NCBI RefSeq assembly: GCF_037042905.1
Contig: NC_087251.1
Span: 8,496,001 to 8,560,000, forward strand
DNA: 64,000 nucleotides
Source of the DNA: Lytechinus pictus
Taxonomy: Eukaryota
Reading direction: 5' to 3'
Under the pieces are notes generated by a model. That model was not told the DNA's origin. It saw nothing but the letters and a program-made list of their open reading frames with translations, and ran no database searches. Made by a program: the position numbers and the translations under genes. Shown one piece after another: positions 16,901 to 58,970 of the stretch (positions are counted from its first letter, which is position 1; each line of letters begins with the position of its first letter).

Positions 16901-19299
16901 TAAAAAGGGTATTATAGAGGGAGAATAAAATATTTTTTCTTGAAATTTGATAAAGTCCTTGGGCTTGATCCAGAAAGAGGGTATGATTATGGTAACTTTG
17001 TCATAATGGCAACTACCATTGTAACAGGGCGCAACAAGCCAATCAAAGTAAAGTTAAGTATGGTGGTCATGATGGCAAAATTACTATCAACCAAAGTCTA
17101 AACGAAACTGCCACTGGACTACATTATGAACCTAATGAGATGCAAAAAGGTGGGAAACACTAAATCAGATGAATAGCAAAGATTCAATTGTCATGTTTAT
17201 TCATATTTTATGTGCATGGAAATAGGGAGTATTCATTTCATACAAGATTATTTACAATATTATTTTTAATCTTTATTTTGTCTCCTTTATTAGGCAATCC
17301 AAGAACAGATGAGATCACATGGTCAGGAGCCTGTATCGTTTGCTGATGTTAAAGATGAGATATTTGACATGGTAAAACCAGCTGATCCACTTCATATTAC
17401 ATTACAAGATCTCATCAACAGGTATGTCTCAAATTTATCAATTTAACATTGAGAACTGTTATGAATATTATACCAAAAACACAAAAAATTCCATCTTGGT
17501 AATGTTGCATAACAATTAATAGTATAGTAGCTTTACATCCAATGATAACTTTCATGTTCATGATCAATTATCTGTCAAAATCAAAGATTCATTGGAAATT
17601 ACCATTGGATAGTAAAGTTTCTATAATAGTAATTTTTTTATGCAGTGGGATGCTGATTAGATAATTATATTATCTTCAAAATGCTTACATTTTCAAAATA
17701 ATCACTTCATCCTAATATAGTGAGAGTAATGTTATAAAATACCACACAAGGTAGACTAGAAAACTATTATCCATACCTAAGTATGAAATATGTTTCTGTA
17801 TTATGGTAAGGAATCTTACATGAAATGTCCATACAGTAGATTCAAATAGATCAAAGTATGTTACAGAGGTTATACCTAACAATGACCCATTTTTTGTCTC
17901 ACCTGCATAGCAGAGTGAGACTATAGGCGCCGCTTTTCCGACGGCGACGGCGACGGCGGCGGCGGCGTCAACACCAAATCTTAACCTGAGGTTAAGTTTT
18001 TGAAATGACAGCATAACTTAGAAAGTATATGGACCTAGTTCATGAAACTTGGCCATAAGGTTAATCAAGTATTACTGAACATCCTGCCTGAGTTTCATGT
18101 CACATGACCAAGGTCAAAGGTCATTTAGGGTCAATGAACTTAGACCATGTTGGGGGAATCAACATCAAAATCTTAACCTAAGGTTAAGTTTTTGAAATGT
18201 CATCATAACTTAGAAAATATATGGACCTAGTTCATGAAACTTATACATAAGGTTAATCAAGTATCACTGAACATCCTGCATGAGTTTCACATCACATGAC
18301 CAAGGTCAAAGGTCATTTAGGGTCAATGAACTTTGGCCGAATTGGGGGTATCTGTTGAATTACCATCATAACTTTGAAAGTTTATGGATCTGATTCATGA
18401 AACTTGGACATAATAGTAATCAAGTATTACTGAACATCCTGTGCAAGTTTCAGGTCACATGATCAAGGTCAAAGGTCATTTAGGGTCAATGAACTTTGGC
18501 CAAATTAGGGTATTTGTTGAATTACAGCCATAAATTTGAAAGTGTGTTGGTCTAGTTCATAAAACTTGGACATAATAGTAATCAAGTATCACTGAACATC
18601 CTGTGCGAGTTTCAGGTCACATGATCAAGGTCAAAGGTCATGTAAGGTCAAAGAACTTTGGCCACGTTGGAGGTATTTGTTGAATTGCCATCATATCTCT
18701 ATAAGTGTATTGGTCTAGTTCATAAAACGTGGAAATAAGAGTAACCAAGTATCACTGAACATCTTGTGTGAGTTATAGTAGTTTTCAAAATCAGCACTGC
18801 TGCTATATTGAATCGCGTGATGCAGGTGAGACGGCCAGAGGCATTCCACTTGTTTAATATCAACCATTCTACTTTTCAATTTCAAAATTAGTTTATATAT
18901 GCATATAAGAAGAAAAATGATTTGAATTATTTTGTGTTTTAGAAATATGATGCGGCCATCATGCAGGGCCCAAGTTTGTTGTTGTTTTTTGTTATGATGA
19001 AATATATTCCTCCTACCTTAAACATATGAATGGCTAAATGAATAGACTCATCTGATTGTACAGTAGAGCGGAAAGGGGCATTAAAAAGGTTGTTTATTGT
19101 AAGCTCTCTCTTGTCTAAATAAATAATGTGCTTATTGGACACCAGTAACATCTGTAATTTGTATTTTTATTTTGTTAACAGCAATCATGGTGAGACAGTA
19201 ATCAGTATCCTGATAGATCTAAATGGATTCTGGACTTATGAAAACAGAGAGGTTCTCATGGCTGAAAATAACTCACAAGATGATGATCACGATATCTGA
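7949..19299 (+). CDS. PPP2R3C: Serine/threonine-protein phosphatase 2A regulatory subunit B'' gamma (spliced; 5'-most exon not identified)
   Basis: Exons with AG/GT ends and a consistent frame: 7949-8073, 10104-10153, 10817-10871, 11916-12028, 12536-12704, 13689-13821, 14543-14674, 15453-15589, 16435-16572, 17294-17421, 19182-19299 (TGA). Translation includes IPRFYFKLPGEDDVLLQKLREESRAVFLQRRSRELLDNEELQNLWFLLDKH, KVWLHQTRIGLSLYDVAGQG, DLENYILELIPTLPQLDGLEKSFYSFYVCTAVRKFFFFLDP, EF-hand YLNLDKDHNGMLSKAE and ILIDLNGFWTYENRE, which I recognise as PPP2R3C. Confidence 0.96.
8468..9915 (+). mobile_element. Helentron/DINE-like element with ~130-bp AGGTCA-rich tandem units
   Basis: TCTCGCC..GGCGAGA 5' hairpin, (CCGT)n, repeated CAACCAAACTTGGATGGTAGATGGACTTGGGGGACC..AGGTCAAAGGTCA units, 3' GGCGCGAGAC...CTTGTTT. 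Confidence 0.75.
8851..9143 (+). mobile_element. tRNA-derived SINE
   Basis: A box TGGCCCAGTGG, B box GGTTCGAATCCC, conserved body CACTCGACCCAGGTG..AAATGGGTACC, (ATT)n tail. Confidence 0.88.
13932..14146. mobile_element. Short hAT-like MITE with GGTTAG-like core
   Basis: Flanked by an 8-bp direct repeat ACCATTTA. A related copy at ~31280-31466 is flanked by GTTTAGAG/ATTTAGAG. Confidence 0.65.
17892..18855 (+). mobile_element. Helentron/DINE-like element with AGGTCA-rich tandem units
   Basis: GTCTCACCTGC..GTGAGAC 5' hairpin, (CGG/CGA)n, four ~160-190-bp units, subterminal GCAGGTGAGAC, 3' CTTGTTT; T-rich target. Confidence 0.78.
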
Positions 19300-22648: not shown

Positions 22649-25184
22649 TTAATTTTTTATACTGTGCATAACAGCAATTTTGAACCCGTATTTTCAGTTC
22701 TTCTATAGTCAACTGCATTCCGAATTGAACTCTAGATATTTTTTATTATTTAATTTCATTCAATCTCAACACCAATTTCAAACTTGGCTCGTGTTTGCAT
22801 ATTTGACTGAGGATGAGGATGATCTGATTAGATTGTGGGGTTTCAAGTTCAAGGGCCAAAGGACATTAGTTCTTTCATGCAATAGCCAATTAACCAAGAG
22901 AAGGGACATCTTCAAACTTGCTTGTGCATATATGGGAGTGAAGATACTCTGACTAGATTTGGAGGGTCATGAGTTCAGAGGTCATTGTTTTAACAGTTTA
23001 GAAGTACACTGTGTGATATATTTCTGATCAAGCAGTGACAGTGGCATACATTTTGGTCTGTGCAGTTGAGAATCTATCTAGTTTTCTTTGGTTTTTGCTT
23101 CAATATGAATTTTTAAAACGTCTATCAGGACTGTATAAAATGTGTATATATTATGTACATTATTAAATTATTTATTTTTCATTAAAGTGAATGAATACCT
23201 GAATGCAATTTTAGTGTTTTGGATAGAAAAGTTTAATAAAGTTTTTCTAGAATTATCTGGATTTGTTTTGTATTTTGTGGTGTGTTTTTTAAATTAATTT
23301 TGTTTTATGTTTTGCTCATTATTTTTAATGAGTCAAACTTATATTGTTGACAGTTCTGAGAGAGAGAGAGAAAATTGAACTGTGTGACTAAAAATACTGC
23401 TAGACGTTGAGAGAGGAGAGGTCATGATAGAGACTATAAATAGGTGCAGCCTAGTAACATTCCATTAAGGATGAAAGGACAATGGATTTATTAAAGTGGA
23501 TATTAATAGAGACAGTATAGCACAGTAGATTTAGTGTAATAATGAAGGAACTTATTAATAATTAGACTTAGACATACAATTAATGGTATGAGTGGTATAT
23601 TGTAACCAAGGTGAAACAGAAATAACTGATACAACTGGAACAAGGAAAAGAAGTATAAGAAAGTAAGAGGGAGAAGGTACATGTATGGTAACCCCAGATT
23701 TTTTTTTAGAATATCAAATAGAAAATCATAGAAAACAAAAGTGACATATCTTCATATGTACTAACAATTTACCATATGCTAGAATATATTTCTTCCCCCC
23801 CCCCAAACCACTAATCTTTTTCAAAGGGAAGTGCCAGAAAGCAATCGTCAATTTCTTCCATAACGATGTTTGTACAAGCAGCCCTTGTCAGATCACATCT
23901 AACCTCCCGTTTCATAATATCAGTGAAGCCATGTAATGCCTATAGCTGAGATAGAGTAATTCCAACCACTCCTTTTCTATCTCTTTGTCTATCTGTCTGT
24001 CCGTTTCTCGTACTTATGTTGCACTGCAATATCAAACTCGCAGAATTGCAAGAACTCATTCCAATACTGCAGCGTCCAACAAAATTTTAGCAAGATTTGA
24101 ATAGGGATTTCATCAACAATCTTCGGAAGGAAGCTTAGTTATTTCCGTCTTTTCTCTCTTATCACATACAAAACGTAATCAAACGCATGTCAGACAATCA
24201 AAGCTATCAAGTATTCTTACATTGCACATCTGTTCACGCCTACATTGACATAAGAAATCACACAAAGCTAATAACCTCACAAGGAAAAGGTAAGTCACAT
24301 TCGTCCATTTTACATCATTTACATATTTTTTCAAGCCCATACCGGCCTATACACAATTGTCTGATCTTGTTTTAAATAGAAATATACAAAACAACGGGGA
24401 AATTTGATCGGAGCTTGAAACTAAGTGTGGGCACCAATTAGTACTTACATTTCAGGAAATAAGAGTTTGATTTATATATATTTTCCATGAAATTTTGAGA
24501 ATATTACGTTCGCATGCACATGTTATTCTAACCCCTCTCCCTCGATATTTGTTACTCTTTTTGTAAATATCATCGAATGAACATTTATACAGAAAGAGAG
24601 TGTCTGTATAGTCACGTTGAAAAGTAAGATTTCTTAATCATATGCTATACGTCCAATATGGATTTAAACATCCTAACAGACAGATTTACCAAAAATCGGA
24701 TTTGAAATAAAATATAACATTTATTTCAGAGTTATATAACACATGGCGCTGATATTCACCATTGCTTCCTTCGTTTAGTCCATCCATGATCTCTTGAAGA
24801 ATATAAACGGGGCAAATTCCAACTTGATCGAAACAAAGCCAATCATAGGATCATAGTCCTGTTAGGAAGCCTGTTCTTTGGTGAGTAACTCAATGGTGTC
24901 CTTTTCCGTACCTTTTAATGTTAATCAATGACAAAGTTTCATTTAGCTGGTAATTCAACCAGTCCCTTCCCCTTTATAAATGAACATTCGCCCCGGCCCC
25001 TTCCCAAACTTAGTCAAACGAGGACTGAGAAAGGTGGGCGGTGCCCTTGCTTGATTGCGCAACAACACCGCACGTGTTCGCAAACATATACATAGCGGCC
25101 ATCATAGTTCTCAGTTTACAATCGTTCGCGAGTTTGCTATAAAGTGCTGGTTCGCCTGGTCGTTGTTCTTAACTAACTACCGTC

Positions 25185-26357
25185 ATGAAATCCTTAATAA
25201 CTTCTTTCAATTTAATCCGTAGGATGTCTTCATTGGGCAATCAAACCATGTATGGCTTCACTGTAACATCTCTTGATGGGAAACAGAAACAATTGTCTGA
25301 TTACCAGGGAAAGGCATGCATGATCATCAATGTTGCATCTCTTTGAGGCACGACCACGCGCGACTACCATCAGCTCAATGAGCTGGCGGGAAAGTACGGG
25401 TCGCGCGGCTTTGAGGTTCTGGCGTTCCCCTGTAACCAGTTCGGGCATCAGGTAAATTTATTTTCTCAGTGTTAATTTTTGACTCTGGACTTCTCTAACT
25501 TCAGCTCACATGTTAAGAAACTAATTTTTTAATCATTTATTCCCCATTTATCAGCTCAATACAGATGGAAAGGTTTGGGCCATGGCCCCCAAAAGTTCTA
25601 AAACCAAGAACAAAAAAGAAAAGGAAACGATAGTGTAACTGTAAGATCTATTATTTTCAGAATGTGTCAAATCTATAGATTCTCATGAAAGGGGTGATAA
25701 TTTGTCTTCTCGCTCGCTTTGCTTGCTCAGGACTGATATTAAGCAACATTTTGCCACATGCACTAATCTGACTATTATTTTTACAGTGGCTTACACTACA
25801 GACAAAGAAAAAAAGAGCGAATGGTACAAAATATATTATTTTCTGAATAATGTCAAAATCTAACATAAAATTGAATTTTTGTAATAAAAATGTCAAAGTT
25901 TTTGCTCGATACGCCAATCTGGCCCCCTCAAAATTTTTGCCTCATGATGCCACTGCCTGCATGTTCATACCATAATGTATGACCTGGAAATTGTTTGGCT
26001 CTTGCCCCCCTCCCCTTCCCTGGCCACTGACCCCTGTACACATACATGCGATATTACAAGCTAACCTATTTCCTTTGAAATATTTAAGCTAGCCAGTGTA
26101 ATCGATCAATGGAAAAGATTCATAACTGACTGCAAATATTACAGACCATCTACAAAGGAATACATATGGGCAATTCCATAAAATATGTACATCCGACCCT
26201 TATCTGTATGTGGTACCTTTATAAAATAATCTGTCTCTGAATACTTGTTCTTTTGACAAGGGACCATGACTTGGTCAGTTTATGAAGTGAAGTAAGACTT
26301 GAGAAAATTGGGGGTCTGACGTACAAAAAGGTTGATCATTTTATGGAAATATATATA

Positions 26358-26412
<55 letters not shown>

Positions 26413-29400
26413 TTGGGGGGAGGGTGTTTTAAAGTTTTGACTTTATGGGAGAAATACAGATCATAGAAGAGAAATACGGCAATATTTCCTCAAAACTAAA
26501 AATTACATATGACTGTTTATTTGTTGACATCTTGTATTATCAATTTATTCATGATGATATATACAAAATGCAGGTGCCAACAACTACTCATTTTTCGATT
26601 GAATTGAATTCATTGGAAGGGTCATGGTGTAGTGGTTCAATTAGTCACTTAACTCCTATGGTATGCAATCAAAAGATAATAAACCTCAGAAATTTTCTAT
26701 GGTTTCAAATTAATTGAATGTCAGTTTAAATAGGACTGCATTTACCCACACCAATAAAAGAAAAAGGAAGATAGCAATTGAAAACTGTGTAAGGAAGAAT
26801 GTTAGATGAAGAGAGGGACACAGAGAGAGAGAGGGGGGGGGTGAAGGAGGGGGAGGACCTTTAGGGATAGGGAGAGTGAGGGGCAGGATAAGGTAGGAAG
26901 AAAGAAGATGTTAATTGTACTATACAAAGTTGAAAGTTCAGGGAAGGGCTTGAGCTTACTATTTCATTGTTTTATGTTGTATTCATTCCCCTTTCGTCAT
27001 CATTAACACCATTATTGTCATTATGGTTATCAGAAGCGTACGCAGGATTTTTGAAAGGGGGGTTTTCGAGTTGAATGAAAATTTGACAAGCAAAAAAAAA
27101 GCCCCCCCCCAAAAAAAAAAAAAAAATTTCATGAAATATCTGAGGGGGGGGTTGAACCCCTGTAAACCCCCCCCTGCGTACACTTATCAAGTGGCAACGC
27201 CATGTGCTGTTTGTGTTTACAATATGAATAATATATTGTAAAGCATTAAAATGTGAAAGCTAGAGAAAATGTTCAACAGTTATCAATGATCAGCATAATA
27301 TTAAGCTCCTCAACTCCTAAATCAAGGGTTGAGGGTTCGAATCCCACCCTGTGCTTATGTCCTTTGGCAAGGCACTTATCCACATTTGTGACTCTCCACC
27401 CAGTTGTTAAATGGGTATCCCGGTAGGATGTGAACGTCAATGTGATTAGATTGGCACAAGTGCACCGATAAACGGTTGCCTGGCAAAGAGAGTCCCCAGG
27501 GAGTGGAGATGTTTGACTTTATGTGTGGAACAGTGATGGATCCTATGACTGGGGTAATAATAATTACAATTTAAAGTGCTTAGAAAGCAATGTATGAAGC
27601 GCTATATAAATGAAACTATTGTTATTATTATCATTATTTGGCAATTGCCAATATTCAGAAAAAAATTGCAAAATGATTCAAAATTTACAACATGTACATA
27701 TATTGTAATAGTTTTAGGAAAAAATGTTAAAATGTAATTTTGATTAATTCTTTTCAGGAAATATTGCTTCTATCTCTTTTGCACGTTCCTATAAAGAAAG
27801 CCAAAATGGTATATATTTATTCTCAATAATTCTACCACTTAAATCATTTATATTGTTCTGTTCCAGGAGAATTGTAAGAATGAAGAGATTCTGAACTTGC
27901 TGAAATACGTCAGACCAGGACAGGGTTATGAACCACAGTGAGTATTGTTTTGGCAAATTCTGCTAACAAGGTTAATGGATAAATAATATGGCAGTCTTCC
28001 CTTTGACTTATTAAGTCAGTCTATCAATCTCTTCTCTACGGAGCCTTTTAAGTGCCATCGACTTGATGACTTGGCGAGATACTTAAAGGAGAATGAAACC
28101 CTTGAAACCAGCTGAATCCATATAAAAGAGAAAAATCAAAGAAACATATTGTTGAAAGTTTGAGGAAGATTGAATGAATAATAAGAAAGTTATGAGCATT
28201 TGAATATTGAGATCACTAATGCCATGTAGATCCTCCCATTGGCAATGCGACCAAGATCTGTGATGTCACACACGTACAACTCCCTCATTACTTTAGTACT
28301 TATTTCACTTATATTCTCACTTTTATAGAGTCTATCACAAGGTGAGGTGTTCTCTTTATGAGAGGACAAGTACAGAGGTTTCACAACATTATATCATTGA
28401 TGAATCGTTTGTCATATGATTAGAATGAGCAAAAAGAGATGTTTTGGGGTATATTTTCAGTGTCCAAAACTGGACAACTCTCCCCTTTTGGACACTGAAA
28501 ATGTACCCCAAAACATCTCTTTTTGCTCATTCTAATCATATGACAAACGATTCATCATTGATATAATGTTGTGAAACCTCTGTACTTGTCCTCTCATATA
28601 AAGAGAACACCTCACCTTGTGATAGACTCTATATAAAAGTGAGAATATAAGTGAAAAAAGTACTAAAGTAATGAGGGAGTTGTACGTGTGTGACATCACA
28701 GATCTTGGTTGCATTGCCAATGGGAGGATCTACATGGCATTAGTGATCTCAATTTTCAAATGCTCATAACTTTCTTATTATTCATTCAATCTTCGTCAAA
28801 CTTTCAACAATATGTTTCTTTGATTTTTCTCTTTGATATGGATTCAGCTGGTTTCAAGGGTTTCATTCTCCTTTAATCTTGCCATGTCGACATAATAACC
28901 TTATTATGTCGACATGGCGAGATACATTATCTCGCCAAGTTGACTTATAAAAAGTTATATGTCAACTTGGCGAGATATTTGGACTCTCGCCGGGCCTTGG
29001 ACACTTCATATCTTGCCATGTCGACATATAATGTTTTATGAGTCGACTTGGGTAAGATAAAATATCTAGCTATGTTGACATATAACTTTTTATAAGTCAA
29101 CTTGGCGAGATAACGTATCTCGCCATGTTGACATAATAAGGTTATTATGTCGACATGGCAAGATAAAGTATCTCGCCAAGTCGTCAAGTCGATACTTACT
29201 AACACTGCGTGCATAAACTTGTATAGGCCTACTGCTTTGTTTTGGTCTGCTATTGTTTTTTTTAAACTAAATATGAAGTAAGAATATTTTACAGCAGGTA
29301 TATTACACCATGCATCTTTTGTAATATGATATTGTATTAGAATAGACAACAGTTGTGTTTATAATCCTAAATGATATATTTCAAATTTGTATTCTATATT

Positions 29401-29743
29401 CTTTTGTTTCCTTTGTGCATGCACAGCATAATCACATTTTTTTTTTTTTTTTTGCATTAACAGATTTCCAATATTCTCCAAAGTAACGGTCAATGGTAAG
29501 GACAGCCATCCTCTCTTCACCTTCCTCAAAACCAGCCTCCCTTTCCCTAGTGACCTGGCAGCAGGGGCGGGATCAGTCCTCATGAATGACCCTAAGGGAA
29601 TCATCTGGAGTCCTGTTAGACGTTATGATATCAGCTGGAACTTTGAGAAGTTCTTGATTAACAAAGATGGAGTACCAGTTGCAAGGTACAGTCCCAAACT
29701 GCCCCCTGCAGACATGGCTGGAGATATTGAGAAGCTCTTGTAG
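25185..29743 (+). CDS. GPX1: Selenocysteine-containing glutathione peroxidase, GPx1/GPx2-like (~205 aa, Sec at codon 54)
   Basis: Exons 25185-25451, 27867-27937, 29464-29743 (TAG). Translation: ...[13 protein letters not shown](TGA 25344-25346)[13 protein letters not shown]...[47 protein letters not shown]...[24 protein letters not shown]. It has the catalytic tetrad U/Q/W/N and the GPx1/2-type oligomerisation loop. GPX1 versus GPX2 orthology cannot be resolved by eye. Confidence 0.95.
26615..27637 (+). mobile_element. tRNA-derived SINE split by a ~650-bp insertion
   Basis: A box TGGTGTAGTGG ~26625; B box GGTTCGAATCCC ~27334; body like the SINE at 8851; ATT-rich tail. Confidence 0.75.
28087..28872. 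mobile_element. Fully palindromic TTAA-flanked MITE (Kolobok-like)
   Basis: TTAA-AGGAGAATGAAACCC ... GGGTTTCATTCTCCT-TTAA; near-identical ~380-bp arms. Inserted in an older palindromic GTCGAC/GGCGAGAT element (28057-29193). Confidence 0.9.
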
Positions 29744-30849
29744 GCTGTGGCATATGCTGCAAAAAAATTATGTTCAATGTTATTTCAAAACAAATCTTTC
29801 CATGATTTGAATTATTTCAAAACAAAATCTTTCCATGATTTGAAATAATTTAATGGCTTTCTATCAAATGGAAAAAACAAATTTTAGTCATTGACTTTGA
29901 AAATAACACTCGCACATTGAATTATCTTTGAAAAAAGCTCGATATTGACAAAGAAACTAAATCTTTAAGTTGTATCACTGTGTATGACATGGGAATTATA
30001 TTTCCATTTCAGATTTTCTGTTGATTTATTAATTTGAGTTTATTTACACAATTTAATACTTTGTTGATTTTTTTCTTAATAAAAATCAGGAACTCTGTTG
30101 TTGGGCATTAAATGAGTATTAATGTTTAAAATATATTGCCTTACATTGTTTACCTCTTGTTGTACATAGGCAGAAGGTAGACCTTCATTAGCATTGTTTT
30201 TTCAGTTTCAATATTCTTTATTAAACTTTCTTCTTGGACATTCATGAACATTTACCTGTTAGAAAATAAAGTCAAGACAATCATGCATTTTGTATGTAAT
30301 TCAGCATGAAATAGCCCCCCCCCCACCCCCGTTGGGGAAATAATTGGTTAACCCACTCATATGATTATGTGCTATATTCAATGTATAATTGATGCCAGCT
30401 TAGCCAATCCTATAATGTGATCCCATATCTGATTATATGTAAAGCATTAATTCATCAATCAGTATTTTGTGTGTGATTTTAACCTTGACAATGTTATCAA
30501 CTAGGATAACCTGTAACACTTCCATTGATTATTATTTATTCTTCACAATAGTATTTATTTGTATTTGCACTTGACAGCTTTTATTTTCTGTGTTGTCTTT
30601 TTTTCAAAGACCATTTTTCCTTTATGATAGTATTGTTTTTAAATCAAGCCTTGAAGAAATGATATTTGATGTGTTGGAAAACCGATGTACTTTAAGAAAA
30701 AAAAGGAAACACTGAAAATAATGGTTTGTTTTTATGTGCTTTGACATTCATTAGTCTTCAGGGTCAGTATGTAGATGTGACATGAGAAGTATTAGTATTG
30801 TATGTGCCTTTATTTCATGCTTTCTTTACCTCTTGCAGATGTCTCCCAT

Positions 30850-30930
30850 TGATTTTTATTCTCATCTATGATGGCGTTGTCTTAAACTCTTAATAGAGAG
30901 AGTAATGCCGGATGCTTTACAGAATCTAAT
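30850..30930 (+). promoter_or_regulatory. SECIS element (type II/form 2) in the GPx 3' UTR
   Basis: ATGA at 30868-30871; helix GGCGTTG(TCT) pairs with (AGA)gTAATGCC; unpaired AAA 30884-30886; apical mini-helix CTCT-taat-AGAG; 3' GA at 30911-30912. Lower helix GATTTT/AGAATC. Confidence 0.85.
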
Positions 30931-31799
30931 CAAACGCAATGCAAGAGATAAAGTAAACATTTGAAGATCATTTTACATAGAGAGAAAATATTAAAATAAC
31001 CACCAAGAAAAGTTTTGATTGCTCAGATTTTCTTTGTCCAATGTCTCAACCACTCCAAATATGGGATCCCTATGTTAATACCTTGATTAATCAGTTTTTC
31101 GGGCCACATAATTTCACATATTTTTGTATTGTTTAGGCTTCCACCAACTGAGAGTTTAGAAGGCCAGCATTCACTAACTACTTTTTAAAGCCAAATGGTC
31201 AATCATTTTTTTTTTCTTTTTGCTGCTTGTTGTCTTGCAATTGTTGGAGAAAAAAGTGACAATGATTAGGTGTTTAGAGGGTGATACGACATATGCTTTT
31301 GTCTGTGGCATTTGCTCCTTAATATCTCAGAGGGAATAGGGTTTTGAGTTAGGATTGTAAGAGAATTTCAGTTCAGAACAATGTAAAGATTAAGATCAGG
31401 GTTTATTTAGTTTTGGAAGTTAGGTTTTGTCGGAGCAATTGTCGCCAGAGCTCATGTCATGGAACCATTTAGAGATTATATAGAATATATATATCTGTAA
31501 ATGGTTCCATGACGTGCTCTGGTGTTGTATATTGTGTTGAAGGCATGTTCAGCTAAAGGAGAATAGGATGGGTTGCTCAGTAGGGGGCCTCTTGTCACTT
31601 CAATAGCTCAATGGAGGTAAAATCTTTGTGGGTTGAGGAGCTTAATATTATGCTGATCATTGATAACTGTTGAACATTTTCTCTAGCTTTCACATATTGA
31701 TGCTTTACAATATATTATTCATATTGTAAACACAAACAGCACATGGCGTTGCCACTTGATAAGTGTACGCAGGGGGGGGGGGAGGTTTACAGGGGTTAA

Positions 31800-32490
31800 C
31801 CCTATAGCACCTACAGATTCCTATGCATAATGGCAATTACTCACTGGAGGAAACAATAAAAATGGTAATAAGTAGGCATTGTTCCAAACAAATTGAAATA
31901 GTTTTTTATAAATTTACTTTTGTTCATTACAAGTTATATCATAGGACCTGTTGAATAGAATGGTACATGGCAAAGTTCAATCAGATGTACGAATATTGAC
32001 CTTTGACAATCGTTTGCAGAGCGAGAAGAAAAAAAACAAAAGTTTGGGTTTAAGCCGCCCCAGTCCCACGCCTTCAAAAAAATGTAAAGTATCACTGACA
32101 GAATACAAAAGTTTTCGCCAAATCTTGGATCAAATATGTCAAAAATTAATTCCAACTCACATCTAGATGTCACTCTGTGTGATATCCAACGTTTTGATGA
32201 ACATATAGCAACGCCCGAGCTTCTTCGGCGAAGTAAGTGGTTTTCCGAGACATGGACGCAGCCATCTTTGCTGAGATCGACTGCGCAACAGTCTGGAACT
32301 TGATCGTTTTTTCTCTATTATACTCAATAGGAGCATACACTTTTCTATGCAGATCTATATAGCAGCCAACCTATACGGTATGCACACGCAATATTACCAC
32401 GGTAAATCATAGACAAGAGATACTATAGCGCAAAGAAAACGTACAGGCGGTTCAGTGTGTAATAGGAAGGGCGGTTCAGGTGCTATAGGG
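31800..32490. mobile_element. piggyBac-like non-autonomous element
   Basis: TTAA TSD (31796-9, 32491-4); 13-bp TIR CCCTATAGCACCT. The empty site is visible in the paralogous copy near 27150. Confidence 0.88.
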
Positions 32491-33119
32491 TTAAACCCCC
32501 CCTCAGATATTTTTTGATAACTTTTTTTGGGGGGGCTTTTTTTTTTGCTTGTCAAATTTTCATTCAACTCGAAAACCCCCCTTTCAAAAATCCTGCGTAC
32601 GCTACTGATAACCATAATGACAATAATGGTGTTAATGATGACGAAAGGGGAATGAATACAACATAAAACAATGAAATAGTAAGCTCAAGCCCTTCCCTGA
32701 ACTGTCAACTTTGTAGAGTACAATCAACATCTTCTTTCTTCCTACCTTATCCTGCCCCTCACTCTCCCTATCCCTCAAGGTCCTCCCCCTCCTTCACCCC
32801 CCCCCCCTCTATCTCTGTCCCTCTCTTCATCTAACATTCTTCCTTACACAGTTTTCAATTGCTATCTTCCTTTTTCTTTTATTGGTGTGGGTAAATGCAG
32901 TCCTATTTAAACTGACAATCAATAAATTTGAAACCATAGAAAATTTCTGAGGTTTATTATCTTTTATTGCATACCATGTTTTAACATCTATTATGTCATT
33001 TCCATTTAGAGACTATTCCAAATAGGATGCAATAAATAAATTGATTTTAAAAATGACAACAAAGCCTGCTTGATCTTAATTATACCTGCATGAATCCTTG
33101 TGCATATGCATTGCACATA

Positions 33120-34810
<1,691 letters not shown>

Positions 34811-36132
34811 TACATGTAGTTGCATGTATAATAGAGCATGAGAAACTGGGTGGGTCTTTACAAAGCTTATGCTAAAAACGTAAATAAATATTTGGTCAAA
34901 TGAATACCACTGATACTTTTTAACACCACTCAGCAGAATTTAGTTCACAGATAACTATATGAAGAGTGTATTACATTATGTTTTGAAGACCTGTTAGCAC
35001 ACAAGTTTGGGGTCTGTGCTCAATAACACATGTATCTGTCAAATCATTTTCAGTTACTGCGCTGGTAATCACAATGTCACTTGGAAAAATAGTTCAAAAT
35101 ATTAATTTTCTGAAATATTCAAATTAATCTAATAAATTTTCCAAAAGATTTTGATAAAATACATTTGTATTTCTTTTTTGGGTCTAGTCATAGGAGGTGT
35201 AATGTATCATTAGTCACACATAATTTCACACAAAACTGTTGACATGTTCATAGGTGCTATATCAGATTTCCTCTTTGGCTAATTGAACTCTTGACATTCA
35301 CATATTATTTTTTTTAATCTGTAAATTTTTTTACCACAGTCATTATCAAAGGAAATTCACGTGTACTATGTTGTAACGGGTATTACGGCATCTCATATAG
35401 CACATGATCAGGGCAGCATTTTATGAAGCTTGTCAGTACTGACAGTTGGTATCTTCTGACAGTTACCATAGTAACAGGCATAGACCAGTGCTTCAAGAAG
35501 TGCACTAAACTTGAGAGCTGACGATTTTCATGAAACTCCCTTAGGTCATCAGTCATGCTTGCTTACAGTCGTGAAAAAAATTACAAACTGCCTTATAAAA
35601 TATGGCATGTCATCACTACCCCTCCTATCCTCCTGGCCAATCTATATCCACTGCTTGAATCATGCTATAATTATACATTCATTCAACATGAACAACCTTC
35701 AGTTGTCTTCATAATAAATGCAATCTGCAGACCTGCAAACAGCTAAATTCCAATTTCAGGGTGGATCTCTCTCAATCATACACATTCTAGCGGCCTCATC
35801 CATTACCCTAAAATCTGTATCCTGCAAAAAATTATGCATACCAACACCATCCTCCATTATTTTAACACATTAGTGATGAAAATACAAAATTGATCTGTAT
35901 TTCCTCTTTGTTTAGAAAATATGAATAGCAAAAGCACCTATAGCAGTACAGTGTCCTTTTAAAAAATGCTTCCATAGTATTTCTAAAATGTTGGAATCAA
36001 GGTTTCAAGAAATGCCCCAGACTCCCCCCGTTCCTTATTATTTCCGGCATCAGGACCACACAGCAGCACATGCTTTTGCTTAAACACTTTACCCCCTATG
36101 TGTAATGAGATGCTAAGTCAAATAGTAGATAT

Positions 36133-37354: not shown

Positions 37355-40300
37355 TCAACTGATAGCAATAGTAGTTAGACCTATAAATGTCCTTCTAAAC
37401 CATCTCACAACAGATGAACACATCAGCCAAAGGTACATCTCATAAGCTGATATCTGAAGAAGTTTAACATCTCGTCGCACATGAACCATAAGACGACCCC
37501 ATCTAGTGGTTTTCTGTAATGCTTTATGGTGAGCTACAGAGCGTACACAACATCTGGACATGTTGATGAACGAACTGGCACTCTCGCTGCTCCCCAATGC
37601 ATATTCAATACTACGTAGTAAGTCATTGGTCTTGAGGAGGAGCAGCATCTGTCTTGGTACCATGTTTAGGAGTTTAGTGATTTCTGAGATGTACTGGGCT
37701 GCATGCTCGCGAACCTCACGATCCTAGAATCAAATATAAGTAGAAAATAATATGAATCTATGAGCACCTTGGGCAATTCTCTTTTTAGAAATCTGTTAAA
37801 GATTTTTCATTACCTTATTAAAGGGATAAGAAATTAAAGGCGTATTGAAGAATTATAAATAATCACAATATTGACTGCATTTTTTTTTACAGGAAACAGA
37901 CAAAATAGTATTTTCTATATACTGGTACATGTAACGAGTGATATCCTGGGGCGGTATTCTGAACATTGTCTTTTCTCCATATTTTATCTTATCTCAGAGA
38001 TATGACAAAATCGGTATTCTGGTGGATGTCATATCTTTTGTCACAAAAATTGTCATAAATTTCGTCTCTTCTTTTTAGCGCGCACCAAAAACACGCGGCT
38101 TTAAATGCGCGTAATCCTTTTATTCAAGCAAAAGATATGACAAAAGTTATGACAGGGGGGTAGCAGTCATAAATTTTGTCATATCTTTTAGCACCAAATA
38201 TCCCGATACCCTGCCGACTGAATGTCAAGCATATAATGATATTATTTAGATTAGATTGTGGTATTAGTTTCACTCATCAACCATGACAATTTTCAAAATT
38301 ATATTTTCATGCTACAATTAGTTAGGCCCTACATATTAAATTCCTCCTTTTTCCTTTGTTTTTCTTCTTTTTCTACTTCTCCTCTTAAATCCTTCACAGC
38401 TCCCTGTCTCTCTTTTTAATTAAGCGCATTAATATACGCGTAGTTGCGCGATGCCAGCAACTGCATTGGGGATACGCCCTACCTGCCACGGGGCCTTCCT
38501 ATTGGCTAGAAGGGCTCCCACTGGGAACTAACGATGATTTTGATTGGTTTGCTTCCGAAAAGTTGGGCGGGAACTTTGAGGGATATGACAAGGAAAAGAC
38601 AATGTTCAGAATACTGATTTGTGACAATCATAGCGGTGTCACATCTCGGAGAGAAATGACAAAATTTATGACAAAAGTTATGACAGTGTTCCAAAATACC
38701 ACCCCTGGTGTAACTGTAACAAAGAATTTCTTCCAAAAGTCCTTGTTCTATCCACTTCACACTGTTTACAACATAGTGTTGTAATCCAATCTACATGGAG
38801 GAAGTTACTAATTGATGCAGAGAGTCAAGGTTCCAGCCCTGGTCATGTCTCTTAAATGGTGGCGTTTAAGGTCGGTCCATGACATAAATAATCATATCCC
38901 ATTGATACACGTCATTGAAAATTCAATAACACAGACTGTCCTTAAAAGATTGCATTTACAGAATCATTTTATAGATTCGGAAGAGTGTCAGATTTTACAG
39001 GTGGGAAAAATAGACAGAAAATGGGCAAAAGTAACAAATATACAGTAATTTGGTAACAGCTTGTATGTTTGTTCCAGGACAGTAAACACATAATCTTGTC
39101 CGCAGGTTTCATAACGATGAATAACCAGTAAAAGAAAGTGAAATGTTGCTTTACCTCTTGAGCAGACCTTTGTTTCTTGTCAATACCAACAGCCAATGAA
39201 TCCCATGATCTAGCAGTCAGCATACAAGCAAAGATACCATACATTTGACCAGCCCCTAATGCCATACTATAATGTTTGATACCCTCGAGATCAGCTGCTA
39301 AGATAGACTGCCATAGACGGGAGTAATCCAGACGAAAATCATCTGTCAGTGTCTGGAGGATAAGAAAATACAGACTTACTCAAAACATATGATTTATGCT
39401 ATTACAAGTGTAAATCAATATGCATTTCATTGTCAGATTTGTTGAATCAATTGGTAATGCAGAAGTCAATATTAAAAAAAAAAAGATATTTAATTGTGTT
39501 TAAAGGGATGCTCTGGGCTGAAAATAATATGAATTATACAGATAAAGAAAAATCAGAAAAACAAAACACTGAAAATTTTATCAAAATCGGACAACGAATA
39601 ACAAAGTTATGGCATTTTAAAGATTTGCATTACTATGGTGAAACAGTTCTAGGCATGTCTTCATGAATATTCAATGAGCAAATTGATGATGTCATATCCC
39701 CACTTGTTCTTTTGCATTTTATTACATGAAATTAGGTTTATTCAAATTTTTTCAACCAAGAACTAAAAAAATTGGATTGACAACTGATTTAGTGTATTAG
39801 ATATTCATTGCTGCAACTTATTTCATTAGAGAGGAGACACATTATTCACACATGTATGAAAAAATGAAACAATGATGATTTCATGTAATAACAAGAAAAA
39901 GAAAAGTGTGTATGTGACATCATCAGCCCACCTAATGAATATTCATGATGATGTGCATATAAGTATTTTAATAAAATAATGCTGAACTTTAAAATTTGAT
40001 AACTTTGTTATCCTATTTTGATGAAATTTTCAGCATTTTGCTCTGTGAATTTTACTCTATTTATTTAGATATAAATATTTTCAGCTCGGAGTACCCATTT
40101 AAGGCATGTTTTTCAGTATGTTCTCAAACTGCCATTTTCATGATTTTAATTATCTGTTTAGAAATTGAAGAGCATTATATTTCAAAGCTTAAATGGTTAA
40201 TAAAAAAACTGTCTGATCTCATGTGAGTGAACCTGCAGTGACGCCTGAATCCAAAAATCATTATCGCACCAACTTTCATTTGGAAGGGTATCTATTCACA

Positions 40301-54968: not shown

Positions 54969-55496
54969 ATGGCAATGGGGCACTTCCATTGACGGTTGGA
55001 TACCATATGCCCGACCATGGGGTCTCGAAAAGCACCCTAAACAAGTATTTTCCATATTCTGAAAATGAACCCCTTATCAAGTAAATTGGCGTATGAAACC
55101 CTACCGTTAACAAGTATTGGAAACAAAACGATACTCGATCTTCATTCTTGGCAAAACGTATTCCCTGAATTTGAACCCCTAATGCCCTATGCTATGTCAC
55201 CGACGTCATGGGCGTCGATCGTTCGTCGGTTTTGGTTTTACCATCATACAGCCGATACAGCCCCACGTACCTCCTCCCGCGCCGGGCGGGCCCACACCTC
55301 GCGCAAATCGTACCGGTACTCCAAACACGTAATGTTGACTAGTGTTGGGGCAAAATTAGTACATCAAAACATTTTAGTCTCTTTTTATATACACTGTAAA
55401 AAAAATTCTGAATCAGTAGTTAACACAATAATGTATTTAAGTAGAATTTACAATTTGTATTTTTTTTTCGTTTTTTCAAGTAGTAGTTTACTTTAT

Positions 55497-58400
55497 CAAG
55501 ATTTTGAAAACATATTTGCTGTAAAAGGCCTTCACTTTGTACATCTAAATGTTAGATCTATTCTACCAAAAATTTCAGAACTTCGAATTATTTTTAAGGG
55601 AAAGAATCTTGCAGTCATTGCTTTCACAGAAACATGGCTAAATAACTCGGTGAACGATGAAGAAATCAATATAGATGGATACAAAGTAATACGCAATGAT
55701 AGATTATCAGGCTCTGGGGGTGGTGTATGTTTTTATGTCCGAAATGATATTGCATTCAATATCATAGATGTTTTAAGTACAGGTGATTCTGAATCACTGT
55801 GGATTAATTTGCTTCTACCAAGATCAAAATTATTGCTGGCGTCATTTATAGGCCTCCGAAAAGCAATCAATTTATTGAGAAGATGTCAAATATTCTCGAT
55901 ATATTAAAGAAAGATGATGAAATTATACTTTTAGGCGATATGAATGTTTGTCTTTTTCAGAAATCTCCACTGGCTAAAAAATATACTGACTTATTGAGTC
56001 TTCATGGATTTAGCCAACTCATCAAAGATGCAACCCGTGTCACTCACACATGTTCTTCTTTATTGGACCATGTGATTTGTAATAACGAACAAAAAATAAG
56101 TCAAAGTGGTGTTATTGATCTTGGTATAAGTGACCATTCTTTTACTTTCTGTACACGAAAGAAAATTAGGCTGGCTATAGGTGTTCACAGAACCACTGAT
56201 ATCAGATCGTTGAAAAAATATAGCGAAGAATCTTTCAATCTTAAACTGTCTGCCGTTGATTGGTCAGATTTAACCCAATGCACTGACGTAAATAAGGCTT
56301 GGTCAGTTTTTCAAAATACTTTTATTTCAACGTTGAATATGATAGCGCCTCAAAAACGGATTAGAATTAAACAGAGATCAGAAAACTGGATGACTAAAGA
56401 TATTATTTCTCTTATTCGAGAAAGAAATGTGGCGTATAAAAAAATGAAGAAAAATCTAAGCGATCACGATTATGACACGCTTTCCAAAAGATACAAGAAA
56501 TTAAGAAATATGGTTCAAAGAGAGGTGAAAAAGGCCAAATTAGAATACCTACAAAATAAAATAGAAGAAAATAAAAATGATTCTAAAAGACTTTGGCAGA
56601 ATCTAAAAAGTTTGGGATTAAAAAAGAAAAATGGAAAGGACCAAGAATTAGTCGTTTCAATTGACGGAGAATTATGTCATGATAAGATAACTATTTCCAA
56701 TAAATTCAATTCCTATTTTACAAATGTCGCAGCTACGTTGGTAGATAAACTTCCATCTTGCAAAGACATTTTCAGTGCAGACAGTGAAAACATTCGTAAA
56801 TTTTATGAAAAAAAAGGTATAAGCCAAGATAAATTTGAATTATTACCTGTTAGTGATCAATTCATTTTTAATGAGTTGCGTAAATTAAATGTATCAAAAA
56901 GCACTGGGTTAGATTTGATACCTGCTAAATTTCTAAAAGAAGGAGCAAAGAGTTTGTACAAACCATTAAATTTCTTAATAAATCTATCTATCTTTACTAG
57001 CACTTTCCCAGAGGATATGAAAATTGCAAAAGTAACTCCTATTCATAAGAAGAAAGATAAAACTGCTGTTGAAAACTATAGACCTATCAGTGTTTTAAGC
57101 ATAGTATCCAAAATTCTAGAAAAGGCGGTATGTGTTCAGATCGAAAAATATTTTAAAGAAAATGATATGATTTACGAATATCAGTCAGGTTTTCGACATG
57201 ACTATTCGACTGAGACATGCCTTATTCACTTGACTGATTATCTGAGAACAAATATGTCTAAGGGACAATTCGTTGGGATGGTACTCCTAGATCTTCAAAA
57301 AGCATTTGATACAGTTAATCACGGCATCTTATTGAAAAAATTACAAATAATGGGTTTTAACCAGGCTACTGTAGCATGGTTCAAATCCTACTTGTCGAAT
57401 CGACATCAAGTAGTGGCTATTCGCGATATTTGTTCCAAAATTATGCCTATAACGTGTGGAGTTCCACAGGGAAGTATTTTAGGCCCAATCCTATTTTCAA
57501 CTTATATCAATGACATGTCTATTTGTTTAAAAGCTGACTGTAAATTATTATTGTATGCAGATGATAGCGTACTACTTTGTTCAAATGCCAACCCAAAATT
57601 TGTTGAGGAAAAACTTAGCGAACAGCTGTCTACATGTGTCGATTGGATGACTGATAATAGATTATCGTTACACTTAGGCAAAACCGAAAGCATTCTGTTC
57701 TGTTCTAAAAGTAATCATAAAACTTCATTTGAATTTGAAGTATCATACAATAATAAGATAATTCATAGGAAAGAATCTGTAAAGTATTTAGGCATTGAGT
57801 TGACTAGCTCCCTTTCATTTTCATCTTTAGTAGAATCAATCGTAAAAAAGGCGAATGCCCGTTTGAAATTTTTGTACAGGTATCAAAGTTGTATGGATCA
57901 AAAAGCAAGGCGTATTCTCTGTTTTGCTCTTATTCAGAGTTTATTTGACTATGCCAACCCTGCTTGGTTTAGTGGCATAAGCGAACTCGATAAAAAGAAG
58001 TTGAAAATTATACAGAATAAAATGGTTAGATTCATTAGCTGTTCTGGTCCCAGAACCCATGTTGGCTACACCGAACTCTCTGGAGCAGGTTTTCTTGAAG
58101 TCAACAAAAGATCAAAACAGCTTATTTTGCACCACGTGCATAAAATCTATCACAATAGATCGAATCATTACATTGGATCAAACTTTAATCTAGTTACCGA
58201 AATACATAACTATAATACAAGAAACAGCCATTTCAATTTTTGCTTACCAGAAAGGATAGGTAGTATTGGTAACTCATTTTATTACAATGCTATAAAACAT
58301 TGGAATTCCCTTCCCAATGATATAAAGGAAATAGGAAACTTTTTGCATTTTAAGAGGAAATTGAAAGAATATCTTTCACTTGAGAGTCAAAAAGAAGATG

Positions 58401-58970
58401 CAAATGATATGTTGTACGGTTGATTTAGCCTGAATACTGACCTAGTTCTTTTCTCTTCTCTACTAGGTATTATTATGTATTTTACAGAGTTTGATTGAAG
58501 CTTCGATATGTCCTTTCTTCTATTCTTTCTATTTCTTTTATTTCTTCCTATTCTCCTCTTCTTGTTGTTATTGTCGTCACGTTTATGCTGTTGTTCTTCT
58601 CCTTATTTATTTCCCTTCGTTATCAGTTTCTTCCGTCTCCTTCTACTCCTCGTCCCCTCTCTTCTTCTGTTCCTTCTCTTCCTTCTCCTTCTTTTCTTCT
58701 TCTTCTTCGTTATATTCTTGTATATATCTTATTTATTGTCTATATATCTTATTTATTGGTAATAGTAAATTCTGATTTTTTTTCTTCATTTTTAATATGT
58801 AAATAGTATAATTTTAACATTTTATTATCTTAATTCTGTATATTGAGGACCCCACTGGAAATAAGCTTTCGAGCTTTCGTGGGTCATCCTGTGCAAGCCT
58901 GTTGTTTTAATGCTACTGTATATATGTTATGGTGACTTGCCAAATAAAATCAATCAATCAATCAATCAAT
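55497..58970 (+). mobile_element. 5'-truncated non-LTR retrotransposon (L2/Crack/CR1 group) ORF2 plus 3' UTR
   Basis: APE endonuclease motifs (HLNVRS, AFTETWL, RNDR..GGGVCFY, LLGDMN, SDH) and RT motifs (YRPISVL, DLQKAFD, GVPQGSILGP, YADD, YLG). 3' UTR ends in AATAAA (58943) + (AATC)n. 5' boundary approximate. Confidence 0.92.
55883..58423 (+). CDS. LINE ORF2 (C-terminal endonuclease + reverse transcriptase), separated from its N-terminal APE part by one frameshift near 55829
   Basis: 846-aa open frame with all RT motifs. Upstream, this frame reads IIAGVIYRPPK, which continues the APE domain begun in the other frame (…INLLLPRSK). Confidence 0.9.
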   Translation: MSNILDILKKDDEIILLGDMNVCLFQKSPLAKKYTDLLSLHGFSQLIKDATRVTHTCSSLLDHVICNNEQKISQSGVIDLGISDHSFTFCTRKKIRLAIGVHRTTDIRSLKKYSEESFNLKLSAVDWSDLTQCTDVNKAWSVFQNTFISTLNMIAPQKRIRIKQRSENWMTKDIISLIRERNVAYKKMKKNLSDHDYDTLSKRYKKLRNMVQREVKKAKLEYLQNKIEENKNDSKRLWQNLKSLGLKKKNGKDQELVVSIDGELCHDKITISNKFNSYFTNVAATLVDKLPSCKDIFSADSENIRKFYEKKGISQDKFELLPVSDQFIFNELRKLNVSKSTGLDLIPAKFLKEGAKSLYKPLNFLINLSIFTSTFPEDMKIAKVTPIHKKKDKTAVENYRPISVLSIVSKILEKAVCVQIEKYFKENDMIYEYQSGFRHDYSTETCLIHLTDYLRTNMSKGQFVGMVLLDLQKAFDTVNHGILLKKLQIMGFNQATVAWFKSYLSNRHQVVAIRDICSKIMPITCGVPQGSILGPILFSTYINDMSICLKADCKLLLYADDSVLLCSNANPKFVEEKLSEQLSTCVDWMTDNRLSLHLGKTESILFCSKSNHKTSFEFEVSYNNKIIHRKESVKYLGIELTSSLSFSSLVESIVKKANARLKFLYRYQSCMDQKARRILCFALIQSLFDYANPAWFSGISELDKKKLKIIQNKMVRFISCSGPRTHVGYTELSGAGFLEVNKRSKQLILHHVHKIYHNRSNHYIGSNFNLVTEIHNYNTRNSHFNFCLPERIGSIGNSFYYNAIKHWNSLPNDIKEIGNFLHFKRKLKEYLSLESQKEDANDMLYG

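Follow-up and report, generated by a model that had tools for sequence, protein, structure and literature searches.

An in-frame UGA at the catalytic codon of a GPx1/2-type glutathione peroxidase gene in the sea urchin Lytechinus pictus, with two SECIS-like hairpins in its 3′UTR

Selenocysteine peroxidases and double-SECIS genes

Glutathione peroxidases (GPx) of the GPx1/2 family are homotetramers that reduce H2O2 and organic hydroperoxides and are recycled by glutathione. Animal members with selenocysteine (Sec) at the active site are textbook material, and a Sec-GPx1/2 is expected in sea urchins. The active site is a tetrad in which Sec or Cys is accompanied by Gln, Trp and Asn. Glutathione binding by GPx1 is ascribed to four arginines and one lysine (PMC10298544), and the split between GPX1 and GPX2 is placed in the jawed vertebrates (PMC13134290).

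One Sec codon combined with two SECIS elements has been described for Nematostella Gpx_a and amphioxus DI_b (PMC3473315) and for Ciona SelW1 and human Sep15 (PMC2874816). Such genes are called rare in these sources, which give a test of function for Sep15 only, where the upstream element is non-functional (PMC3473315, PMC2874816). All four resemble the gene described here, which has a single UGA and two SECIS-like hairpins in its 3′UTR; the hairpins of Ciona SelW1 are of type 2 (PMC2874816), as in L. pictus, whereas those of human GPx1 and GPx2 are of type 1 (PMC2761289). For the N-terminus a parallel is offered by mammalian GPx4, of which mitochondrial and cytosolic isoforms are made from two in-frame AUGs, a cleavable leader preceding the second (PMC4446787). 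GPx4 is, however, a monomeric enzyme of another subfamily with alternative promoters, whilst the putative L. pictus leader has 13 residues and is attached to a GPx1/2.

The L. pictus gene lies in a window of 64,000 nucleotides, the whole stretch of DNA that was analysed. It has in common with vertebrate GPx1 and GPx2 the Sec column, the Gln, Trp and Asn residues, the oligomerisation loop and four of the five presumed glutathione-binding positions, and differs from them in overall sequence (about 55–60% identity), in its two SECIS candidates and in a basic leader with two ATGs. Compared with the one-intron structure of the vertebrate genes, the L. pictus gene has one extra intron. The intron at the FGHQ/E boundary is common to L. 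pictus and two genomic gene calls of fish-like type (P0007 and P0009), in which the frame is entered at the same point. The Strongylocentrotus purpuratus protein A0A7M7PU75, a full-length orthologue already present in UniRef, shares the two-Met leader, the length of which differs by two residues, and a four-residue insertion in the oligomerisation loop. Literature searches found no case of a sea urchin GPx with two SECIS elements and, within the literature covered, which lay mostly outside subscription journals, no paper on this gene. The second SECIS candidate and the two-ATG leader are real, if modest, additions, each with a precedent.

Structure, transcription and family of the gene

The gene comprises three exons on the plus strand, which encode a 205-residue glutathione peroxidase of the GPx1/2 type (Table 1). 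Joined from ATG 25185, the frame is 618 nt long, and its only stops are TGA at codon 54 and TAG at codon 206. An initial annotation of this DNA had placed an in-frame UGA at the GPx active site, and this is confirmed: codon 54 falls on the catalytic position of human GPx2 (2he3), bovine GPx1 (1gp1) and human GPx1 (2f8a). The reading NVASL-TGA-GTT given there is in the correct frame, GTT being the peptide Gly-Thr-Thr rather than a codon, and the frame does continue through PCNQFGHQ to a GT donor directly after exon 1 and into two further exons. The absence of any listed open reading frame on this strand here is as expected, because the UGA leaves exon 1 with open stretches of 53 and 35 codons; plus-strand frames of at least 120 aa are absent from the interval 25–30 kb. 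A tblastn search with the S. purpuratus orthologue located the three exons exactly and gave no further match in the window, and we are highly confident that the gene is intact, expressed and single-copy within it.

Table 1. Features of the L. pictus GPx gene (window positions)
Feature	Position	Strand	Basis or remark
13-codon leader between in-frame ATGs 25185 and 25224	25185..25223	+	composition, conservation; candidate mitochondrial presequence
Coding part of exon 1 (89 codons, counted from ATG 25185), with FPCNQFGHQ and catalytic Gln89 at its end	25185..25451	+	frame, homology, stranded RNA
In-frame TGA, predicted selenocysteine 54, the peroxidatic residue	25344..25346	+	alignment to GPx1/GPx2, X1 contig
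Intron 1, GT..AG, phase 0	25452..27866	+	spliced stranded reads and contigs
Exon 2, 71 nt, ENCKNEEIL...YVRPG	27867..27937	+	homology, RNA depth, contigs
Intron 2, GT..AG, phase 2, full of fold-back repeats	27938..29463	+	joint inferred from contig coordinates
Exon 3, coding part to TAG 29741-29743; GPx1/2 oligomerisation loop, Trp171 and Asn172	29464..29743	+	
3′UTR, about 1.29 kb (1288 nt)	29744..31031	+	organism-B contig, X20 depth
SECIS candidate A, type 2, weaker	30615..30681	+	Rfam RF00031, 28 bits, E 0.0018 (451-nt search)
SECIS candidate B, type 2, stronger	30859..30924	+	Rfam RF00031, 31.5 bits, E 0.0002
ATTAAA, likely distal polyadenylation signal	30990..30995	+	coverage ends about 30990-31031

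Four sequencing runs were aligned to positions 25000–31400 of the window. X19 and X20 are stranded RNA, of which about 6% of each run was sampled; they share their species label with X1, which is probably RNA, and X5 derives from a close relative (organism B). Over the exons the X19 and X20 reads lie on one strand, at a depth that is modest overall (about 5–13), with values of 12 and 5.6 in the bin 25214–25427 and of 7.4 and 6.2 in that of exon 2. Intron 1 is removed in 14 (X19) and 12 (X20) stranded reads and in contigs of X1 and X5. In contigs of both these runs 74 letters lie between the parts that match exon 1 and exon 3, a length that corresponds to exon 2 plus three letters; the joint of intron 2 was not among the splice joints listed, beyond which there were 67 more. 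A single X5 contig of 1941 nt extends from exon 1, where it has seven differences, through the 3′UTR to 31031, and an X5 alignment (record 8) over 29464–29792 and 29826–31031 shows this UTR to be unspliced. Transcription proceeds through both hairpins: they are included, with no differences, in an X1 alignment (record 7) that covers 30415–30956. X20 depth drops from 2.7 to 0.02 past 30991, beside the ATTAAA at 30990. In X19 the depth over 30564–30991 was zero, although the coding exons were covered at about 12. Additional poly(A)-type signals are found 5′ of both hairpins (AATAAA at 30078 and 30265; ATTAAA at 30107 and 30220). At the start of the UTR about 33 nt are also duplicated in tandem (29780–29851), a duplication absent from the organism-B contig (a skip of 33).

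Exon 1 alone scores 85 bits with the Pfam GSHPx family (PF00255), for which the cut-off is 27 (E 3.3e-24), and exon 3 matches GPx1 with an E value of 6e-26. These values are far outside the range of chance and assign the protein to the glutathione peroxidases. Within the family, exon 3 scores 93, 91 and 85 bits against two GPx1 and a GPx2 sequence, 59, 55 and 51 against GPx5, GPx6 and GPx3, about 37–40 against GPx4 and 23.5 against GPx7, and it aligns with GPx1 and GPx2 from end to end, oligomerisation loop included. U54, Q89, W171 and N172 align with the active site of GPx1 and GPx2. In what we take to be the glutathione-binding set, R59, K93, R105 and R187 are kept and Ala186 stands where GPx1 has Arg. 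Inspection by eye gave the N-terminus no signal-peptide-like look. The nearest database protein is A0A7M7PU75 (203 aa; 90% identity over exon 3 and 82% over exon 1), and the next relatives after S. purpuratus are at most 63% identical. A tree of 34 rows groups the 14 rows of vertebrate GPx1 and GPx2 in a starred clade (95/91), with the sea urchin protein outside it; the tree was built without GPx3 or GPx4, and its root, which consists of four metagenome rows on a long branch, is unreliable. Together these comparisons support membership of the GPx1/2 subfamily. As the protein falls outside the vertebrate clade and the split is placed in jawed vertebrates, it fits a co-orthologue of both GPx1 and GPx2.

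In a metagenome scan we collected 80 loci, mostly distant (about 35–42% identity); among the motif matches there were 62 Cys codons and nine TGA codons. TGA occupied the catalytic column in all six eukaryote-like loci (L001–L005 and L013). Rfam found one weak SECIS in these six (L004, 1012–1078, 22.5 bits), and since their UTRs are short they give no base rate for a double SECIS. L002, L004 and L005 are TGA-containing GPx1/2-like transcripts with long N-terminal extensions rich in Ala, Ser and Arg, which by eye have the look of algal transit peptides. L021, L027 and L070, which belong to the distant loci (35–39% identity) and have a TGA catalytic codon, are probably bacterial Sec-GPx.

The remark in the initial annotation that automated annotation often truncates or mis-splices such genes is borne out by XP_011674063.1, a RefSeq-named model of 133 aa from which the Sec segment is missing. 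Among 143 proteins compared, including two exon translations of the L. pictus gene, the active-site motif was kept in 45, of which 20 have W at the Sec column, 18 a gap and 7 C, and was missing from the other 98, of which 28 begin at the downstream MNEL. W also stands at the Sec column of a Logan protein that clusters with the S. purpuratus one, as given by a gene caller that reads TGA as W. A 2023 survey of GPx across animals has, in the rows of its sequence file labelled S. purpuratus, a GPx7 and a secreted Cys enzyme only (PMC9925728), and no GPx1/2 of the present type was found under the echinoderm labels searched in its supplement 4 (PMC9925728). Table 1 of the same survey counts four S. 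purpuratus GPx, so that other labels may exist (PMC9925728).

Several other features of the window were noted in passing. Intron 2 contains nested fold-back (MITE-like) elements at 28083–28876 and 28873–29193, with arms of 248 and 108 nt, to which reads from other loci align by the hundred, on both strands. A stretch of about 600 nt in intron 1 (26671–27321) recurs inverted downstream of the gene, in three pieces at 31625–32965 with 96–97% identity, and exons 2 and 3 are thus flanked by inverted copies. A strong AT-rich palindrome lies at 31443–31525, just past the transcript end; weak matches to several miRNA families there were rejected, being beyond the transcript end, within an AT-rich palindrome and far below the cut-offs. 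Further downstream on the plus strand are a Tc1/mariner-type element (33118–34812) with 29-nt terminal inverted repeats, whose transposase frame (33548–34357) matches Pfam HTH_Tnp_Tc3_2 and HTH_SB and has a stop inside the DDE region, and a non-LTR retrotransposon (55041–58423) with an 871-codon frame, a reverse transcriptase match (RVT_1, E 2e-38), a partial endonuclease domain and an overlapping frame upstream. Exon-like frames at 37355–37723 and 38969–39379 belong to a convergent gene on the minus strand; they have no Pfam match, and we take them to resemble the C-terminal sequence of an ADCK1/ABC1-type kinase.

Candidate SECIS hairpins and the N-terminal leader

The initial annotation had tied the identification of a selenoprotein to a functional SECIS in the mRNA, and two SECIS-like hairpins are indeed present in the transcribed 3′UTR. 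Hairpin A has an AUGA core at 30624, an A/U-rich helix of 11–12 bp, an unpaired AAA, an apical minihelix of 4 bp and a GA at 30668; in hairpin B the core is at 30868, the helix measures 10–11 bp and the GA is at 30911, again with an unpaired AAA and a 4-bp apical minihelix. At gathering level Rfam returned no match over the window, the gathering score of RF00031 (35) being above both SECIS scores; the two matches emerged at E-value level, both on the sense strand and in the UTR. Against shuffled sequences the fold of B gave z values of −2.66 and −3.19, and that of A gave −0.62 and −1.44, which are non-significant. A pattern scan whose thresholds were chosen with the Rfam matches known, and which A passes narrowly (−5.4 vs −5.0 kcal/mol), found two matches in the 1288-nt UTR; of 300 shuffles, three gave one match and none gave two. 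The scan also matched two places outside the UTR, in exon 3 at 29582 and on the minus strand at 18206; the minus-strand match (18159–18206) has no matching gene and is probably due to chance. The hairpins are identical at 40 of 77 aligned columns (52%) and produce no BLAST self-match, and a recent duplication was rejected as their source on these grounds. Among the organism-B gaps listed, none lies inside either hairpin, and those at 30692 and 30695 are just outside A; 32 further gaps and 454 further differences lie beyond those listed.

The leader that separates the two in-frame ATGs is basic and amphipathic and has no acidic residue, the first of which is found at position 31; its maximum 11-residue hydrophobic moment is 0.62–0.67, a value that stands by itself, with no control set. 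The product would have 205 aa from the first ATG and 192 aa from the second. S. purpuratus and the Logan relative retain both Met codons, with 11–13 basic, acid-free residues between them that end in RR-M-S, and presequence-like N-terminal extensions are also seen in L001, P0056 and P0065. A third in-frame ATG, at 25248, was rejected as a start, since all 10 X19 reads have ATC there and organism B has ATA. In its composition and hydrophobic moment the leader resembles a mitochondrial presequence, and we place the existence of a mitochondrial isoform a little above an even chance.

Decoding of the UGA, alternatives and significance

A selenocysteine GPx1/2 gene is, with high confidence, the best explanation of the locus. 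After splicing of the introns, a SECIS in the 3′UTR, most likely B and possibly A too, would bind a SECIS-binding protein, and SBP2L is named as the only one in sea urchins (PMC3328465). Bound SBP2L would recruit eEFSec and Sec-tRNA, allowing UGA54 to be decoded as selenocysteine. Family knowledge suggests that Sec54, together with Gln89, Trp171 and Asn172, would reduce H2O2 and organic hydroperoxides, with glutathione regenerating the enzyme, and that the protein would be a homotetramer. The exon 1/exon 2 junction lies 105 nt downstream of UGA54, the same distance as in mammalian GPx1. When selenium is scarce the mRNA is predicted to be a target of nonsense-mediated decay, because this distance exceeds the 50–55 nt of the decay rule; the rule and the sensitivity of GPx1 mRNA under low selenium are described in PMC4105750. 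A multi-Sec SelP has been named for sea urchins in the literature. Against the reading, selenoproteins had not been detected by 75Se labelling in these invertebrates as of 2012 (PMC3328465).

The TGA might be a sequencing error or a private allele of a Cys codon (TGC or TGT), which would make the enzyme a Cys-GPx. The UniRef orthologue P0003 is in fact displayed with C at the Sec column, although this does not discriminate, as the display renders U as C. The initial annotation had pointed to TGT or TGC in reads as a refuting observation; the independent X1 contig over 25193–25448 retains the TGA, and since both of its differences (25223 and 25250) fall away from codon 54, the codon is confirmed outside the assembly. 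The W in the Logan cluster member is likewise a mark of TGA read-through, and a Cys-GPx would not need SECIS elements, so that we consider a Cys codon scarcely conceivable. It is also very improbable, if marginally less so, that the locus is a transcribed pseudogene, with a genuine premature stop at UGA54 and hairpins left over as relics. The modest RNA depth and the sub-threshold scores of both hairpins would suit such a relic, but the 151 codons that follow the UGA are open and share 89–90% identity with the orthologue from S. purpuratus, the stop sits exactly on the catalytic codon and relatives have the same arrangement.

Within the reading as a selenocysteine GPx, the number of working SECIS elements and the use of the start codons are less settled. 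There is a substantial possibility, somewhat short of even, that only B works and that A is decaying or a chance look-alike; a precedent is human Sep15, whose upstream SECIS is cited as non-functional (PMC2874816). The lower bit score of A, its helix rich in A/U and G-U pairs and its non-significant fold all point in this direction. On the other hand, A has every consensus feature in register and is not a fresh copy of B, and selection on it is suggested by the fact that an old copy still pairs; the gaps listed for organism B, none of which lies inside either hairpin although two lie just outside A, speak on the same side. For the leader, the chance that ATG 25185 is either the sole start or unused, with no role in targeting, comes close to one half. 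The leader is short, at 13 residues, and the N-terminus with which mammalian GPx1 enters mitochondria is rich in Ala. Against this stand the conservation of the two Met codons and of the basic, acid-free leader in S. purpuratus and the Logan relative, the loss of the ATG at 25248 in X19 reads and organism B, and the presequence-like extensions of L001, P0056 and P0065.

Taken together, the selenocysteine reading could be extended to a scheme in which the mRNA, with its single UGA, has two working SECIS elements that sea urchins in general conserve; use of the proximal poly(A) signals (30078–30270) can remove both elements and so decide whether the mRNA serves enzyme production or decays; and a presequence-bearing mitochondrial Sec-GPx1/2 arises beside the cytosolic form by leaky scanning at two AUGs, a design that would recur in L001, P0056 and P0065. 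We regard this combination as unlikely as a whole. If it were true, the gene would offer a natural test of what maintains two SECIS elements on an mRNA with one Sec codon and of how enzymes of the GPx1 type come to enter mitochondria; the conserved two-AUG leader may in any case send a GPx1-type enzyme to that organelle. The main value of the present finding is the correction of annotation, as the RefSeq-named model of the orthologue is without the catalytic segment.
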